64,000 nt of DNA from an uncultured Elusimicrobia bacterium. GTDB taxonomy: Bacteria > Elusimicrobiota > Elusimicrobia > Elusimicrobiales > UBA9959. The stretch spans positions 20,041-84,040 of the forward strand of contig CAIQNV010000049.1 of NCBI GenBank assembly GCA_903873295.1, written 5' to 3'. The notes beneath the pieces were generated by a model. That model saw nothing but the letters and a program-made list of their open reading frames with translations. It ran no database searches and was not told the DNA's origin. This document shows positions 35,835-52,049 of the stretch, one piece after another (positions within the stretch are counted from its first letter, which is position 1; each line of letters begins with the position of its first letter). The translations under genes and the position numbers were made by a program.

Positions 35835-35886
35835 ACTAACTTATCCGCGGGATGCTTAGTCGGGGCCTACCGCAGGGGAGTCGGGG

Positions 35887-36006
35887 TCCTGGCGAGGGAT
35901 TGCCCATTCCGCCGCGCAGGAACCGTTGCGCGGTTCCCCCCAGCCGGGATAATCAGGCTGGGGCCCCCCTCCCCAAAGCGGCTCCAGGGCAACCCCTCGC
36001 CACCCC
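35887..36006. other. Multibranch intergenic stem-loop element
   Basis: TGGCGAGGGATTGCCC pairs with GGGCAACCCCTCGCCA; internal hairpins GGAACCG/CGGTTCC and CCCCAGCC/GGCTGGGG. Confidence 0.55.
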
Positions 36007-36054
36007 TCCGGTTTGGCTTATTTTTAAAAAAGCCATGCTTGCCGTGTCGCGAGA

Positions 36055-36192
36055 CTGGCGGAGACCGTGTGGGCCGGGTTAGCAAAACCTTCTTGAGGGT
36101 GAGGCTTGCATAGCGCCGAACCCGAGAGATGAGGGAGGCCGCGGTGTGGCCGACCGCGTTTTCCGTTCCGGCCCACACGGCATGCCGCCCAG
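36055..36192 (+). ncRNA. Candidate structured RNA/ssDNA motif, copy A (upstream of glnS)
   Basis: Shares CCGGGTTAGCAAAACC, GCTTGCATA, GAGGCCRCGGTGTGGCCGA and CGCGTTTTSCGTTCCGG with the reverse complement of 50334-50467; stems differ in sequence but still pair. Confidence 0.6.
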
Positions 36193-36242
36193 CGCTAATC
36201 CACATTAAACCCCGAAGACTTATAAATTGTTATAATTTTATT

Positions 36243-37937
36243 ATGGAAAACCAAGAGCCTAAGTCCAATTTTATACGCGAGATCATCGACGCTGACCTGG
36301 CTTCGGGCAAATCCGAAGGCCGCGTGCACACGCGCTTCCCGCCGGAACCCAACGGCTATCTGCATATCGGCCACGCCAAATCCATCTGCCTCAACTCCGG
36401 CCTCGCCCGCGACTATAAGGGGAAATTCAACCTCCGCTTCGACGACACTAATCCGTCCAAGGAAGAGCAGGAGTACGTGGATTCCATAGTCGAGGACGTG
36501 AAATGGCTCGGCGGCGACTTCGAAGACCGCCTATTTTTCGCCTCCGACTATTTCCCGCAGATGTACGACTGGGCCATGGCGCTGGTTAAAAAAGGCAAAG
36601 CTTATGTCTGCGACCAGACCCCGGAAGAGGTCCGCCGGTCCCGCGGCACCCCCAGTGAGCCGGGTAAAGACAGCCCCTTCCGCAACCGGTCCATAGAAGA
36701 GAACGCCGACCTGTTCGAGCGCATGAAGAACGGCGAGTTTCCCGACGGTTCCCGCGTGCTGCGCGCCAAGATAGACATGGCCCACCCGAACCTGTACCTG
36801 CGCGACCCCGTGATGTACCGCATCCTGCACGCCGAACACCACCGCCAGGGGGGGAAGTGGTGCGTCTATCCTATGTACGACTGGGCTCACGGTCTAGAGG
36901 ATTCCATCGAGCAGATCACCCATTCCATCTGCACCCTTGAGTTCGAGAATCACCGGCCGCTATACGACTGGTTCCTGAACGCGCTGGAGACCTACCATCC
37001 CCGGCAGATAGAATTTGCCCGCCTGAACCTGAGCAACACCGTTCTGAGCAAGCGCAAACTGCTCGAGCTGGTGCGGGATAACCATGTCAGCGGCTGGGAC
37101 GATCCGCGCATGCCCACCATCTCCGGGCTGCGGCGCAGGGGCTATACCTCTGATTCCATCCGGGCTTTCTGCGCGGAGATAGGCGTGGCCAAGTTCAACA
37201 GCATCGTGGATATCTGGGTGCTGGAAAACTCCCTCCGCAACGAACTGAACAAGACCGCGACCCGCGTGATGGCGGTGCTGCGCCCGCTGAAAGTGGTGAT
37301 AGATAATTACCCCCAGGACCAGGCGGAGGAGATGGACCTGGTGAATAACCCCGAAGACCCCGCCGCGGGCGCCCGCAAGGTGCCGTTCTGCCGGGAGATC
37401 TATGTCGAGCAGGACGACTTCAAGGAAGTCCCGCCGCCTAAATTCTTCCGCCTGACTCCCGGCCGGGAAGTGCGACTGCGCTCCGCCTATATAATCAAGT
37501 GCGTGGAAGCGGTCAAGGACGCGGCTGGAAACGTCACGGAAGTCCGCTGCACCTACGATCCGGCGACGCGCGGGGGCACCGCGCCCGACGGCCGCAAAAT
37601 AAAAGGCACTATCCACTGGGTTTCGGCCCGGCACGGGTTCGCCGCCCCGGTGCGGCTGTATGACGCGCTGTTCACCAAGCGCGCGCCCGAGGACGTTGAA
37701 GAAGGCCGGGACTTCAAGGAAAACCTGAATCCAGCGTCGCTGGAGACCATAAATAACGCCTGGTGCGAGCCGGGCCTGAAGAACGTTCCCGCCGCCTCGC
37801 GGTTCCAGTTCGAGCGGCTGGGTTACTTTTTTACGGACCCCCGGGATTCGAAGCCCGGCGCCCCGGTCTTTAACCGCACGGTGACGCTGAAGGACACCTG
37901 GGCCAGGATAGAACAAAAAGATCCGGCGGCGAAGTAG
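36243..37937 (+). CDS. glnS: Glutamine--tRNA ligase
   Basis: [48 protein letters not shown]; ATG 36243. Confidence 0.97.
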
Positions 37938-40469: not shown

Positions 40470-41921
40470 ATGCGCGTAAGATTCGCTCCCTCCCCCACAG
40501 GACATCTCCACATCGGCGGCGCCCGCACCGCCTTGTTCAACTACCTCCTGGCGAAAAAGCACAATGGCACCTTCATCCTCCGCATCGAAGATACCGACGA
40601 GGACCGCTCCACGGCGGAGTCCACCAGGTCCATCTTCGAAAGCATGCTCTGGCTGGGCCTCAACTGGGACGAAGGCGCTATGCCCGACAATAAAGAGAAG
40701 GGCGCCTACGGCCCGTACGTGCAGAGTGTGCGAGAAGCGCAGGGGATATACAGGAAATATGCCGACCAGCTCGTCCGGGAAGGCAATGCCTTTCACTGCT
40801 ATTGTTCGCCCGAAGAGCTGGAGGAGTCGCGCAGGAAAGCCCTGACCGAGAAAAGAGACCCCGTATACGACGGGCGCTGCCGCCGCCTGACCGGGGACCA
40901 GCGCGGGGCTTTCGAGGCGCAGGGGCGCAAGCCGGTGGTGCGCTTCATGATGCCCAAAGACGGGGCGGTCGGCTGGGCCGACCTGGTGCATAAAGAGATG
41001 AAGTTCGAAAACAAAGTGCTCTCCGACTTCATCATCCAGAAAGCCTCCGGCTACCCCACCTACAATTTCGCCTGCGTGATAGACGACCACCTGATGGAAA
41101 TAACGCATGTGATCCGCGGCGACGATCATATCTCCAACACCCCGCTGCAGGTGCACCTTTACGCGGCGTTCGGGTGGCAGGTTCCGGAGCTGGGGCACCT
41201 TTCGATGATACTCGGGCCCGACGGCACCCGCCTTTCCAAGCGCCACGGCGCCACCTCGGTGGGAGAATACCGCACACAGGGCTACCTGCCGGAGACCATG
41301 CGCAATTACCTGGCCCTGCTGGGCTGGTCCAACCCCGAGAGCCAGCAGCTCTTCAAAAAGGGCGAGCTGGAGGAAAAGTTCGATCTTAAAGGCTGCCAGA
41401 AAAGTCCGGCCATCTTCGACCCGGTAAAACTGGACTGGATGAACGGCGAGTACATACGCACGCTTTCCAGGGAAGAGTTTGTGGGCGCGACTGGTCCGTA
41501 TATGGACCAATTCGGCTTAAATGTTCCTCTCTCCGGGGTTCCGCGGGCGGATATAGTCGCCCTTGAACAGGAAAAGTGCAAGCTGCTGGCTGAGCTGCCG
41601 GCCAAAGTGGAATTCTTCTTCAAAGACCCGGTTTACGATCAGGCGGCCGTCGACTCAACCCTTAAAAAACCGGAAGTTCCGGCGATACTCAAAGGTGTAA
41701 AGGAAGCCTACTGCGCCCTGCCTGAATTCAAGGACGTCCAAATTGAAGCAGCCACCCGCGCCTTCGCCAAAGCCGGCGGCTTCAAGGCCGGCCAGGTGTT
41801 CCACCCGGTGCGCGTGGCTCTGTCCGGCCGCACGGACGGGCCCACCCTCTTCAAGATGATAGAGTACCTGGGCAAAGAAGAATCCCTGAAGCGCCTGGAC
41901 AAGGCGCTGGCGCTGGTATAA
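40470..41921 (+). CDS. gltX: Glutamate--tRNA ligase
   Basis: RFAPSPTGHLHIGG, LRIEDTD, THVIRGDDH, LSKRHG. Confidence 0.97.
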   Translation: MRVRFAPSPTGHLHIGGARTALFNYLLAKKHNGTFILRIEDTDEDRSTAESTRSIFESMLWLGLNWDEGAMPDNKEKGAYGPYVQSVREAQGIYRKYADQLVREGNAFHCYCSPEELEESRRKALTEKRDPVYDGRCRRLTGDQRGAFEAQGRKPVVRFMMPKDGAVGWADLVHKEMKFENKVLSDFIIQKASGYPTYNFACVIDDHLMEITHVIRGDDHISNTPLQVHLYAAFGWQVPELGHLSMILGPDGTRLSKRHGATSVGEYRTQGYLPETMRNYLALLGWSNPESQQLFKKGELEEKFDLKGCQKSPAIFDPVKLDWMNGEYIRTLSREEFVGATGPYMDQFGLNVPLSGVPRADIVALEQEKCKLLAELPAKVEFFFKDPVYDQAAVDSTLKKPEVPAILKGVKEAYCALPEFKDVQIEAATRAFAKAGGFKAGQVFHPVRVALSGRTDGPTLFKMIEYLGKEESLKRLDKALALV

Positions 41922-42138
41922 TAGCGCGGAAACCGCGGGCGCTGAAGAGGGCCGCGGAAGGCGGGAGCGGGAGCCGCTTTCCCGCCTTCCGGGGTCATAT
42001 CTGTCCCGTAACCGCCTGTCCCCGCGTAACAAAATCGCCACATCTTTGCATTAAATTCTAAATACCTAAATTGTAAACTTTCATAGGCGTACGCAGAGCG
42101 CAGCCTCTGATGCGGCGCGGACATAGTTCAGCGACCCT

Positions 42139-49009: not shown

Positions 49010-50314
49010 TCACTCCGCCAGCTCCGCCCTGCCGCGCAGTTTGCGGTGGTAGGCCACGCCGAAGCGGTGCGCCTCGTCGCGCAGCGCCTGCAGCAGCCTG
49101 AGTCCGGGATGCGCCCGGTCGAGAAGAAGTGGGAGGGCCCGTCCCGGCATATAGATCTCTTCAAGCCGTTTGGCCAGCCCTATGGCCGGGATCTTCATGC
49201 CCGCGGCGCGCAGGGCTTTCAGGGCCGCCGCCAGCTGGCCGGGCCCGCCGTCGATCAAGAGCAGGTCGGGAAGAGTTTCCTCTTTCTTTTTTAGCTGCGC
49301 CAGGCGGCGGCCCACTATCTCCTCCATCATGGCGAGATCATCGCCGCCCTCCGGCGCGTTCTTAAAAGCAATGCGGTATTTGCGGTAATGCGCGGTGTTC
49401 TTTTCGCCGTTAATGAAGCAGACGGAGGAGCCCACCGCCTGCCTGCCGAAAAGACTGGAAGTGTCAAAGGCCTCTATGTGGGCCGGAGGGCGGGCCAGCC
49501 CCAGCGCGGCTTTAAGGGCGGTAACCGCCCCCGTGCGGCCGGTGGCCTGCGGAAGGAAATCCGGGTCCAGCTTGTGCACCAGCACGCGCTCCTCCATGTG
49601 GGAGAAGGCGCCGAGGAAGTCGCGGTACCTGGCGGCCTCCTCGTAGGCAAGTTTTAAGGCGGCGCGCTTCATCCCCGCTTTGAAAGCGAGGCGGAGCTTT
49701 TGAAAATCGCCTTTCAGGAAATCCTCCACGCGCGCGGCCAAAACATTGTAGGCCGCTTTTGAGATCTTCCCGGCGCAGGGCGCGGTGCATTGGCCGGTAT
49801 GGAAGTAAAGGCAGGCTTTTATTTTGCGCACTTCCAGGGGCTTTTCGACGGAGAACTCCCAGCGGCAGCGGCGCAGGTTTATGAACTTTATCCGCCAGAG
49901 ATAGCCTGTCAGCTTTTTCAGCGGCTCCACTTTGGGATAGGGGCCGAAGTAGCGCCCGCCGTCCCTGGTCTTCCTGCGGGTGAACAGCAGGCGGGGAAAA
50001 TCTTCGCGGGTGAGCTCCAGGTACGGGTAGGTCTTGGAGTCTTTCCATATTTCGTTGAAGAAAGGCTGCAGGTTGTGTATGAGCTGGCGCTCCGTCAGCA
50101 GAGCCTCGCGCTCGCTGGCGGAGGCTATGTAGTCTATGCTGCGTATGAGGGCTATGAGGCTGGGGATCTTTCCCCGGGTGTCGGAGGGATTCTTCCTGAA
50201 ATATTGCGCCACGCGGTGGCGCAGGTCCTTGGCCTTGCCGACGTAGAGCACAGCGCCGGCCGCATCGCGCATCAGGTAAACCCCGGGTCCGTCCGGTAAA
50301 TGTGTAAGGTCCAT
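49010..50314 (-). CDS. uvrC: Excinuclease ABC subunit C (short form, no C-terminal HhH)
   Basis: GIY-YIG PGVYLM..YVGKAKDL, UVR motif YEEAARYRD, RNase H-like IEAFDTS, PDLLLIDGGPGQL, RDEAHRF. Confidence 0.9.
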   Translation of the reverse strand: MDLTHLPDGPGVYLMRDAAGAVLYVGKAKDLRHRVAQYFRKNPSDTRGKIPSLIALIRSIDYIASASEREALLTERQLIHNLQPFFNEIWKDSKTYPYLELTREDFPRLLFTRRKTRDGGRYFGPYPKVEPLKKLTGYLWRIKFINLRRCRWEFSVEKPLEVRKIKACLYFHTGQCTAPCAGKISKAAYNVLAARVEDFLKGDFQKLRLAFKAGMKRAALKLAYEEAARYRDFLGAFSHMEERVLVHKLDPDFLPQATGRTGAVTALKAALGLARPPAHIEAFDTSSLFGRQAVGSSVCFINGEKNTAHYRKYRIAFKNAPEGGDDLAMMEEIVGRRLAQLKKKEETLPDLLLIDGGPGQLAAALKALRAAGMKIPAIGLAKRLEEIYMPGRALPLLLDRAHPGLRLLQALRDEAHRFGVAYHRKLRGRAELAE

Positions 50315-50333
50315 AGCGGAAAAAATACTCCGA

Positions 50334-50467
50334 CTGGCTTGTCCGGGTGACCGGAACGCAAAACGCGCTCGGCCACACCGTGGCCTCGCTCCGTGTTCGC
50401 CCGCCGCGCTTATGCAAGCGGCGGGCTCTCCGAGGGTTTTGCTAACCCGGTCACCCGGGCAAGCCGG
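50334..50467 (-). ncRNA. Candidate structured RNA/ssDNA motif, copy B (upstream of uvrC)
   Basis: Inverted homologue of 36055-36192; long closing stem CCGGGTGACCGG/CCGGTCACCCGG; inner hairpins GGCCAC/GTGGCC and GCCCGCCGC/GCGGCGGGC. Confidence 0.6.
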
Positions 50468-50489
50468 ATGCTGCGAAATCCGAAGACTT

Positions 50490-52049
50490 TCAAAACTTCC
50501 CGCCGGTTATTAAATTCCTTTCTTCTACTTTCAGAACTTTAAGGGCGATGAAATACACGGCTGCCGCGGCCGGCACGGAGACGGCCGTAACCAGCACCGG
50601 GCCGGCGGGGGTCAGGACTTCCCGCAAAGCCAGCGCCGTCAGGGCGGAAACCGCCGCGGCCAGCGACGGCCGGAAAAGCGGTATGGCCAGAGGGCTAAAA
50701 CCGGCTTCGCTCCTGAGCGCGAAAAGGAAGGCGAGGGCCGCCGCCCAGGAACTTAAGGAGGTGGCAAGCATGAGCCCGCCCGCCCCCATCGACCGCATCA
50801 GCGGCAGGCACAGGAGCGCGTTCAGCGCCAGCTGGGCGGAGATTATGAGCACAGGAGCCTTCTGCCTGCGCATGGCGTACAGGGCGGAAGCCGCCACCTT
50901 GTTCAGGCCGTAGGCGGGCAGGCCCAGCGCCAGCCAGAAAAGCGCGCGCGCCGTGGCAAGGCTCTGCTCCGGCAGGAATTTCCCGTGTTCGAAAAGCGCC
51001 CTGCAGACAGGCAGCGCCGTCACGGCGATGCCCAGCGCGGCCGGCAGCATTATCAGCCAGGACGCGGTAAGCGCCGGCATCAGCCGGCGCCTGAAACCTT
51101 CAGCGTCGCCGGCGGCCGACCGCGCCGCGAGTTCGGGCAGGGACAGGGCGGCCGCGGCGGCGGCGAAAAGCGAGACGGGGAACTGGACCAGGCGCGCCGA
51201 ATTGTAGATGGCGGTGATCGAGCCTGGAGGCAGAAAGCTCGCGTACATAGTGTTGATCAGCAGAGAAACCTGATCCTGGGCCAGCGTCAGGGCGGCCGGC
51301 GCCGCGGCCAGGAGAGCGGGTGCCGCGCCCATGCTCCTGAAAGGATCTGTAAAGGCCAGACTGTAGCCCTCGCGGCGGAGCAGCGGCAGCAGCGCCAGAG
51401 CCTGAAGAAGGCCCGATCCGGAAGCGACGGCCGCCACCAGTATTATTTTCCCCCGCGCGTCCAGCCCGTCGAAGAGACCGTAATGAAAAGCCGCCAGTAT
51501 GCCTATCACCGAAACCGAAAAGGCGGCGGGGGCCAGCGCCGGCAGAAAGAACCTGCGCGCGGAATTCAGGGCGGCCGTGAAAAGCGCCGCCGCGTTCACG
51601 AAGACCAGATGCGGCATGAAGGCCGCGGCAAGCAGCGCGGTAAGCTCAAGCTGGCCCGGCGAGGAGCGGAACCCCCAGGCCGCGAGCGTGACCAGCTCGC
51701 GCCTGAAAATTATTCCCGCGGCGCACAGCAGGGCCGACCCGGAGAAAATAACCGTCCAGCAGGAAGAAAAAAAAGCGCGCCCGGCGGCCTGCCCCCGAGT
51801 TTTTTCTTTTTCAAAAAGGGGGATGAATACCGCGTTAAGCGCGCCTTCTCCCACAGTGCGCCTGAAAACGTTCATCAGCCGGAAGGCGGCGTAGTAGGCG
51901 TCGGCCAGCGCTCCGCCGCCGAAAAAGGCCACAAGCAGGGCGTCCCGCGCATAGCCGAGAACTTTGGTTATAAGGCCGGCGGCGGCCATTCCTGACAGGC
52001 CCCTGGCGAAGGCGTGTTTCCCTTCCTGCGGAGCGCGCTCCTCGCTCAT
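50490..52049 (-). CDS. murJ: Lipid II flippase MurJ (MviN)
   Basis: KVLGYARD, ADAYYAAFRL, GEGALNAVFIP, RLVQFP, multiple TMs. Confidence 0.93.
   Translation of the reverse strand: MSEERAPQEGKHAFARGLSGMAAAGLITKVLGYARDALLVAFFGGGALADAYYAAFRLMNVFRRTVGEGALNAVFIPLFEKEKTRGQAAGRAFFSSCWTVIFSGSALLCAAGIIFRRELVTLAAWGFRSSPGQLELTALLAAAFMPHLVFVNAAALFTAALNSARRFFLPALAPAAFSVSVIGILAAFHYGLFDGLDARGKIILVAAVASGSGLLQALALLPLLRREGYSLAFTDPFRSMGAAPALLAAAPAALTLAQDQVSLLINTMYASFLPPGSITAIYNSARLVQFPVSLFAAAAAALSLPELAARSAAGDAEGFRRRLMPALTASWLIMLPAALGIAVTALPVCRALFEHGKFLPEQSLATARALFWLALGLPAYGLNKVAASALYAMRRQKAPVLIISAQLALNALLCLPLMRSMGAGGLMLATSLSSWAAALAFLFALRSEAGFSPLAIPLFRPSLAAAVSALTALALREVLTPAGPVLVTAVSVPAAAAVYFIALKVLKVEERNLITGGKF

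Follow-up and report, generated by a model that had tools for sequence, protein, structure and literature searches.

Copies A and B, two segments of the 64,000-nt stretch of DNA analysed here (hereafter the window), are probably, with a likelihood that we put at roughly 75%, DNA repeats that fold into branched hairpins, are dispersed and modular, and belong to the REP/BIME/MITE kind; such elements are non-autonomous and insert at gene junctions. This reading is supported by a high copy number, a range limited to one taxonomic family, insertion polymorphism, the kept pairing of the stems and the uncoupled ancestry of cores and stems. With some 80 copies at gene boundaries in one genome, and a range confined to a single family of Elusimicrobia, they are to be seen as repetitive DNA rather than as a switch dedicated to glnS or uvrC. 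Many of the elements form head-to-head pairs with a second type of module that bears a shared terminal motif, and together they constitute a family-restricted, modular and previously undescribed family of branched-hairpin repeats; a search of the full-text literature found no paper on Elusimicrobia repeats.

An earlier reading of the window from its sequence only had described the two segments as a structured motif with conserved loops and exchanged stems. All the sequence blocks it quoted are present, both in 36055-36192 (+) and in the reverse complement of 50334-50467, and the two copies align with a mean column identity of 79% (Table 1). Their outer stems (CCGTGTGGG/CCCACACGG in copy A, CCGGGTGA/TCACCCGG in copy B) are unlike in sequence and so are their inner stems, and in each copy both stems pair. 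Folded as RNA, copy A reaches -74.8 kcal/mol (z -5.3) and copy B -86.7 kcal/mol (z -7.2), and for neither copy was any of 200 dinucleotide shuffles as good. Both copies also lie, as had been noticed, on the strand of the gene that follows, and Pfam supports the names given to these genes: a Glu/Gln-type class I tRNA synthetase lies 3' of copy A, with purH upstream of the copy, and UvrC (GIY-YIG plus UvrC RNase H-like domain) lies 3' of copy B, with murJ upstream. The final 19 nt of the murJ-uvrC spacer hold GGAG and the hexamer TATTTT ahead of the uvrC ATG. This UvrC (49010-50314, minus strand) is just 434 aa long, and most relatives show translational coupling between the murJ stop and the uvrC start.

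Table 1. Coordinates of the elements and of the features around them in the window
Feature	Position	Strand	Details and evidence
Type III partner of copy A	35845..36016	-	Different branched hairpin with shared 3' tail module; blastn, fold -91.9 kcal/mol, 94% flank homology to contig C84
Copy A, whole hairpin (type I element)	36055..36192	+	Sequence, RNA fold, DNA fold, covariance-model match 36067-36178 at 96.2 bits
Copy A, outer stem P1	36055-36077 with 36168-36192	+	Sequence and folds
Copy A, P2	36082-36087 with 36159-36164	+	One C-C mismatch
Copy A, P3/P4 arm	about 36091-36129	+	P4 36097-36123; loop TTGCATA
Copy A, P5 hairpin	36133-36155	+	
TG-n-TATAAT, putative -10 box of glnS	36228..36245	+	-10 hexamer 36231-36236, then 6 nt, then glnS ATG 36243-36245; conserved in orthologues
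Copy B, whole hairpin (type I element)	50334..50467	-	Sequence, fold, covariance-model match 50344-50457 at 109.2 bits, Pfam, empty junctions in relatives
Setting of copy B	murJ stop 50490-50492; uvrC ATG 50312-50314	-	All on the minus strand
murJ-uvrC spacer	50315..50489	-	175 nt: 22 nt, 134-nt hairpin, 19 nt

Both window copies are of type I, whose branched fold spans 115-140 nt in all. The outer stem P1 comprises 11 pairs in R1, a covariance model that was built from 37 full-length copies with a structure drawn by hand, and pairing runs on for a median of 12 nt beyond these, giving about 20-23 bp; P1 terminates in CCGG on either side of the core. There follow an internal loop of GUUA opposite GUU and the stem P2, in which GCAAAA is paired with UUUUGC, and the core is a three-way junction with two arms. 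One arm, in which P3 leads to P4, consists of 4 bp, a tandem G-A (or Watson-Crick) step, 3 bp, a UU bulge and a GC-GUAA-GC tip; the other, P5, has 9 bp, one bulged A and the loop CACGGUGUG. What is conserved is a core of about 95 nt made up of P2, the P3/P4 arm with its GCGUAAGC-type loop, and P5 with its invariant loop CACGGTGTG and bulged A. About 30 further copies, which we call type II, keep the P3-P5 module and carry GGCGGGC/GCCCGCC as P2 together with a different and longer outer stem, and an extra hairpin insert is present in some copies.

Type III, the partner of copy A, has two inner hairpins and the shared tail motif, and blastn gives 132 HSPs for it in the genome that holds the window, 57 of them at least 80 nt long. 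It is more abundant than the type I/II family, and many of its matches lie at contig ends. The type III element and copy A have their 5' ends facing each other across about 40 nt, which makes them a head-to-head pair, and they occupy between them almost the whole purH-glnS spacer. Wherever head-to-head pairs are adjacent they stand in the order minus then plus, in 9 of 9 cases in the window's own genome and in 10 of 10 in a second one (G021). A terminal tail of about 20 nt is common to type II, type III and one subgroup of type I; its motif was counted 34, 14 and 6 times in three congeners, against 2, 0 and 0 times for the reversed control, and it forms inverted termini on both of the distinct pairs inspected (n = 2). 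Among single elements, for example copy B, the ends vary from copy to copy. A further kind of repeat closed by the shared tail, provisionally 'type IV', is usually aimed at the start of a nearby gene, and occurs in the window's own genome at position 18191 of contig C32, 8819 of C104, 6970 of C110, 9777 of C135 and 21741 of C157.

The draft genome to which the window belongs (157 contigs, 3.49 Mb, 59% G+C) holds 89 copies by iterated nhmmer and 77 by R1. The description of the motif as present in two copies thus stands for the window, where R1 gives exactly two strong matches (109 and 96 bits), but not for the genome. Of these 89 copies, 23 adjoin a contig end (within 150 nt) and one lies inside a called ORF. 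Contigs from four DNA runs are short and break or cross-join at repeats; one of them spans copy A unchanged, and none from the four runs joins across an empty site.

The distribution of the family is narrow. R1 matches were found in all 24 same-genus genomes, from 9 to at least 86 in each, and in 63 of 79 other genomes of the same family, where they are spread over 6 of 13 genera (g1, 40/42 genomes; g12, 3/3; g13, 3/4, with weak matches; g15, 7/7; g16, 3/3; g17, 7/7). The 13 genomes of genera g6-g11 and g14 gave no match, and neither did 16 genomes from two sister families of the order nor 143 genomes drawn evenly over 28 other families of the phylum. For the GlnS protein, the nearest relatives that bear a name come from Elusimicrobia metagenome-assembled genomes. 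The earlier view that the motif belongs to no recognised family was borne out, since Rfam 15 at gathering score matched nothing in the whole 64-kb window, and at E values up to 10 it returned chance-level matches only (E 2.9-4.8; 16-17 bits, compared with gathering scores of 50-115).

Comparison of the copies within the genome confirmed the covariation that had been proposed from two of them. Among 37 copies, 87.4% of the stem cells are paired, compared with 33-47% when partners are slid by 1-3 columns, and 28 of 43 pairs show changes on both sides, values that were reached by none of 500 shuffles. The same holds beyond this genome: in 34 copies from 28 other genomes, whose alignment was fitted to R1 and so favours pairing, 94.2% of cells are paired (35-45% with partners slid by 1-3 columns), both-side changes occur in 35 of 42 pairs, and again 0 of 500 shuffles reached the observed values. 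Further copies therefore do covary, both in the same genome and across genomes, and the data support the view that pairing is maintained while stem sequence turns over, within the genome and across the 28 others. Loops are near-invariant across four genera.

Cores and outer stems have separate histories. Over 666 pairs of copies, the identity of the cores does not correlate with that of the outer arms (r = -0.005), and in five pairs whose cores are at least 97% identical the outer arms are 46-49% identical, which is the background level. One type of outer stem is found with several different core subtypes, and the orthologous copies upstream of glnS in genomes G080 and G087 have flanks in common and cores that are different and, judged by eye, internally compensated. 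The ancestry of the core is uncoupled from that of the outer stem.

To describe where the elements lie we used a crude gene caller of our own, with intergenic regions of at least 100 nt as background. Type I copies occur in either orientation and are enriched at gene 3' ends: 17 are tandem-antisense, 9 tandem-sense (plus one inside a called ORF), 11 convergent and 4 divergent, that is, 11/41 convergent and 4/41 divergent, compared with 112/809 and 192/809 for the background, of which the other 505 regions are tandem. The orientation shared by the two window copies relative to their downstream genes is accordingly not a rule of the family. The neighbours of the copies are mutually unrelated, and the only ones that recur, judged by eye from their N-termini, are response regulators or kinases, glycosidases and radical-SAM paralogues. 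The strand of the element matches positive local GC skew in 26 of 76 copies, and the orientation of single copies in G021, by our own count, is 5 minus to 2 plus, 6 minus to 2 plus and 3 minus to 10 plus on three contigs, which is suggestive of a replication-strand bias and confounded with gene orientation.

Insertion could be followed at orthologous junctions. In 15 of the 19 same-genus relatives listed, murJ and uvrC are separated by 0-15 nt or overlap, compared with 175 nt here; at the same junction genome G074 carries a type II-like element that points the other way, and G014 a type III-like element. These three different elements amount to three independent invasions of one site. Upstream of glnS, R1 found a sense copy at 8 of 30 loci (our own included), an antisense copy at one and none at 21, of which three have little or no upstream sequence on the contig. 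A type I copy lies in antisense 1-4 nt past the uvrC stop, with a shared downstream spacer, at six loci (and at three more by coordinates only), and this is an orthologous insertion that has been retained; the junction measures 5 nt or less in 10 of 30 loci. These orthologous copies have cores that are 77% identical and outer arms that are 55% identical (five copies), and in each of six of them 14-19 of the 19 outer-arm pairs are Watson-Crick.

The position of copy A relative to the glnS promoter is also informative. At all 29 orthologous loci listed (L184-L212), TATAAT stands a few nucleotides before the glnS ATG, usually after TG. A two-hexamer promoter scan did not flag this box, so that it is from its conservation that we read it as a leaderless-type promoter, which suggests that the glnS mRNA is leaderless; copy A, which lies upstream of the box, would then not be part of a 5' UTR. 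Similar -10-like hexamers stand just before the ATG of uvrC in the window and, in six relatives, before that of the gene following uvrC.

The sequence-only reading had offered a cis-regulatory RNA or a ribozyme-like RNA among its explanations, and a gene-specific regulator or self-cleaving ribozyme that controls glnS and uvrC would agree with the sense orientation of both window copies just upstream of a gene and with a strong structure that covaries. We now regard such a function as extremely improbable: the 77-89 copies lie beside unrelated genes in either orientation, copy B is missing from the murJ-uvrC junction in the 15 relatives with a short or overlapping junction, most glnS loci have no copy, copy A would lie upstream of the -10 box, and no riboswitch or ribozyme of Rfam matches even at the permissive threshold.

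Whether the stems are kept at the level of DNA or of RNA can be approached from their mismatches. The 1555 stem cells comprise 1332 Watson-Crick pairs, 27 G-T, 38 A-C, 99 G-A or A-G and 59 other mismatches. Since G-T is a wobble on the plus strand and A-C would be a wobble on the minus strand, wobbles are both rare and symmetric between strands, which does not fit RNA-level compensatory evolution and fits palindromes maintained as DNA. With DNA parameters the two strands fold about equally well (copy A, -35.5 and -35.9 kcal/mol; copy B, -49.5 and -51.3 kcal/mol). At the same time the tandem G-A steps, the bulged A, the UU bulge and the GUAA (GNRA-like) tip are strand-specific, and in 35 of 42 copies the RNA fold of the plus strand is more stable than that of the minus strand, suggesting that something reads one folded strand, be it DNA or RNA.

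We considered, in consequence of such features, that the element could be a structured RNA that serves the host, carried in mRNAs or as small RNAs and acting as an RNase III or other processing site, a 3'-end stabiliser or a terminator, with each copy under selection. In its favour are the pairing and loops kept at orthologous sites over speciation-scale time, the RNA-like GUAA loop and tandem G-A pairs (the 99 cells above), the better RNA fold of the plus strand, the bias to gene 3' ends seen in the convergent and divergent counts, and the terminator-like score of P5 followed by UUUUGCGUU. However, the better-folding strand is antisense in 17 tandem contexts and sense in 9-10, G-U is no commoner than A-C, which is unlike most structured RNAs, P2 of type II is G/C and not A/U-rich, so that the terminator-like tract is not general, and copy A is placed 5' of the -10 box of glnS. 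On balance we find this explanation unlikely. Kept orthologous pairing, near-invariant loops and strand-specific features, which would not be expected of a purely selfish element, nonetheless leave room for a function of each copy, possibly at the level of RNA.

A transposase acting on the folded strand was another proposal of the sequence-only reading, which had named a REP-like single-stranded DNA substrate; the kind of repeat was right, and the link to an HUH or RAYT gene came out negative. RAYTs are the Y1 HUH transposases tied to REP, BIME and REPIN elements in Proteobacteria. The window's own genome has six diverged RAYT-like Y1_Tnp genes (L081-L086; ORFs of 212-342 aa, all outside the window), each of which lies between a set of inverted repeats of its own (24-33 nt, or 79 nt at L081), unrelated to the element, and nhmmer found no copy of the element at these six loci. 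Y1_Tnp genes occur in 12 of the 13 genera of the family, including genera that lack the element, and at E<=1e-5 none is detected in at least nine genomes, which have 8-46 copies of the element. With other repeats at their flanks and no co-distribution, these genes were rejected as cognate mobilisers. Two of the short repeats that flank Y1_Tnp genes are themselves inserted in members of the hairpin family, on contigs C80 and C131.

Other routes of mobilisation gave no better candidate. No TnpB-type gene was matched in this genome, and its one IS110-type gene lies on a contig that has no copy of the element. Beside the 89 copies there is no recurrent transposase-like neighbour, and their flanks revealed no parent IS that shares the ends of the element, in draft assemblies that may collapse IS copies; 600-nt flanks contained no larger repeated unit apart from partner copies and the type III repeat. 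No target-site duplication is evident at copy B when compared with empty sites, or at two pairs, which are few sites.

Two modes of spread were also tried and set aside. The insertion of cores into existing CCGG-centred palindromes would have drawn on a reservoir that does not exist, arms of at least 10 nt being found at 4 of 42,006 CCGG sites, as at other centres. The growth of outer stems by backward copying of the flank was suggested by contig C133, where the stem stays in register for a further 34 nt, into what was ancestrally the 3' end of a radical-SAM gene, at a junction where relatives have abutting stop codons. In-register complementarity was matched by 11 of 3000 shuffles at this locus, which was chosen as the best of 42, and in an unanchored local alignment 2995 of 5000 shuffles were as good; this mode of growth is therefore not established.

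The missing link to a transposase, together with the behaviour of the stems, brings up a domesticated architectural or boundary site, that is, an extruded hairpin or cruciform in DNA bound by a host protein, such as a nucleoid protein, a topoisomerase or a replication or repair factor, much as has been proposed for BIMEs; the element would be retained for the sake of this role and would by now seldom spread. Stems that are perfect on both strands, the equal DNA folds of the strands, copies kept at orthologous junctions with invariant loops, and the lack of any linked or co-distributed transposase would all be compatible with it. Against it stand recent lineage-specific insertions, namely copy B and the three different elements at the murJ-uvrC junction, and copy numbers that range from 9 to more than 86 between congeners, and we know of no protein that binds the element; we judge such a site to be quite unlikely.

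Of the kinds of element already known, REP/BIME/REPIN elements come closest, together with MITEs, of which ERIC and Correia are examples. In REPINs, inverted doublets of extragenic palindromes are the recurrent unit and linkage to a RAYT is defining (PMC3116915). The present elements resemble REP and REPIN in being high-copy extragenic palindromes, with 77-89 copies of which one in 89 lies in a called ORF, and in the recurrence of inverted doublets (the minus-then-plus pairs, 9/9 and 10/10, and copy A with its type III partner). They share with REP, BIME and REPIN hairpins predicted in single-stranded DNA or mRNA, a mosaic and modular make-up, enrichment after gene ends and lineage specificity. 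They differ from REPs in being four to five times longer, with a three-way junction, invariant loops and copy-specific outer stems; instead of a short hairpin (about 20-40 nt) with a conserved 5' tetranucleotide, they have CCGG on both sides of the core. No cognate RAYT that has the element at its flanks and shares its distribution was found here.

The likeness to MITEs is of another kind. ERIC/IRU, Correia/NEMIS, RUP and YPAL are bacterial MITEs that act in transcripts, and they share with the present family a size of 100-400 bp and the potential to form long hairpins, as well as insertion in intergenic regions and operon junctions, either orientation and presence/absence polymorphism. The paired forms here also end in inverted 20-nt motifs (two pairs inspected). 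In contrast to MITEs, which are derivatives of DDE-type IS elements, no target-site duplication was seen at the few sites compared, the draft assemblies revealed no parent IS that shares the ends of the element, and the ends of single elements vary, with no fixed terminal inverted repeats, while the internal branched structure is conserved through covariation. By analogy only, the family also recalls integron attC sites, which work as a folded single strand, conserve structure, bulges and a few bases while leaving the stem sequence free, and stand next to an integrase in arrays of one orientation, with cassettes between them: here, too, structure, bulges and a few bases are conserved and the stem sequence is free. 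Unlike attC sites, these copies are dispersed over many contigs in either orientation and form no cassette arrays, and no R''/R' consensus was seen by eye in the element.

For a non-autonomous repeat of this kind, we hypothesise that a trans-acting protein recognises the single strand in its folded form, and that the conserved loops and bulges might be its contacts. Cores could be homogenised and shuffled through gene conversion between copies. The perfect, wobble-poor outer stems could owe their complementarity to a process at the level of DNA, for example template switching within the hairpin, or else to selection acting on the hairpin as DNA, rather than to compensatory evolution in RNA. 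Any influence on nearby genes, such as the uncoupling of translationally coupled genes or the presence of terminator-like hairpins, would be a by-product.

A somewhat unlikely alternative is that the element is something distinct from RAYT-type REPs, a 'branched hairpin cassette' with a conserved three-way-junction core that is read by a protein, stems that are specific to the locus and junctions that are kept across species. Its stems may be kept perfectly paired, and perhaps lengthened, by template switching within the hairpin. Such a cassette would mean either a new mechanism of mobilisation that uses no known transposase or a domesticated gene-boundary element.

Taken as mobile repeats, the elements have practical consequences for annotation, in that they take up intergenic space, interrupt assemblies, give rise to spurious ORFs and imitate the covariation of riboswitches; covariation alone is for this reason a poor criterion for regulatory RNA in these genomes. 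The family joins conserved structure without conserved stem sequence, invariant loops, modular exchange of cores, and insertion precisely where coupled or abutting genes meet. With no linked transposase, it also offers a good system in which to study how hairpin repeats spread and persist without a RAYT, and what makes it interesting is the question of what recognises the invariant loops and what keeps locus-specific stems paired over speciation-scale time.

Some smaller observations concern the window itself. The ORFs 35852-36082 (+) and 35867-36205 (-), of 76 and 112 aa, fall entirely within the pair of repeats and are, with near certainty, spurious, and the longest glnS ORF, with its start at 36129, over-extends into copy A. 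R1 also gave a third, weak match at 41955-41991 (E 0.083), which is a plain small hairpin outside the family. It coincides with a hairpin that has an 11-bp stem at about 41958-41990, and in one metagenome contig of a related strain (n = 1) the surrounding 88 intergenic nucleotides (41932-42019), which follow a gene that ends at 41921, are replaced by a 24-nt hairpin.
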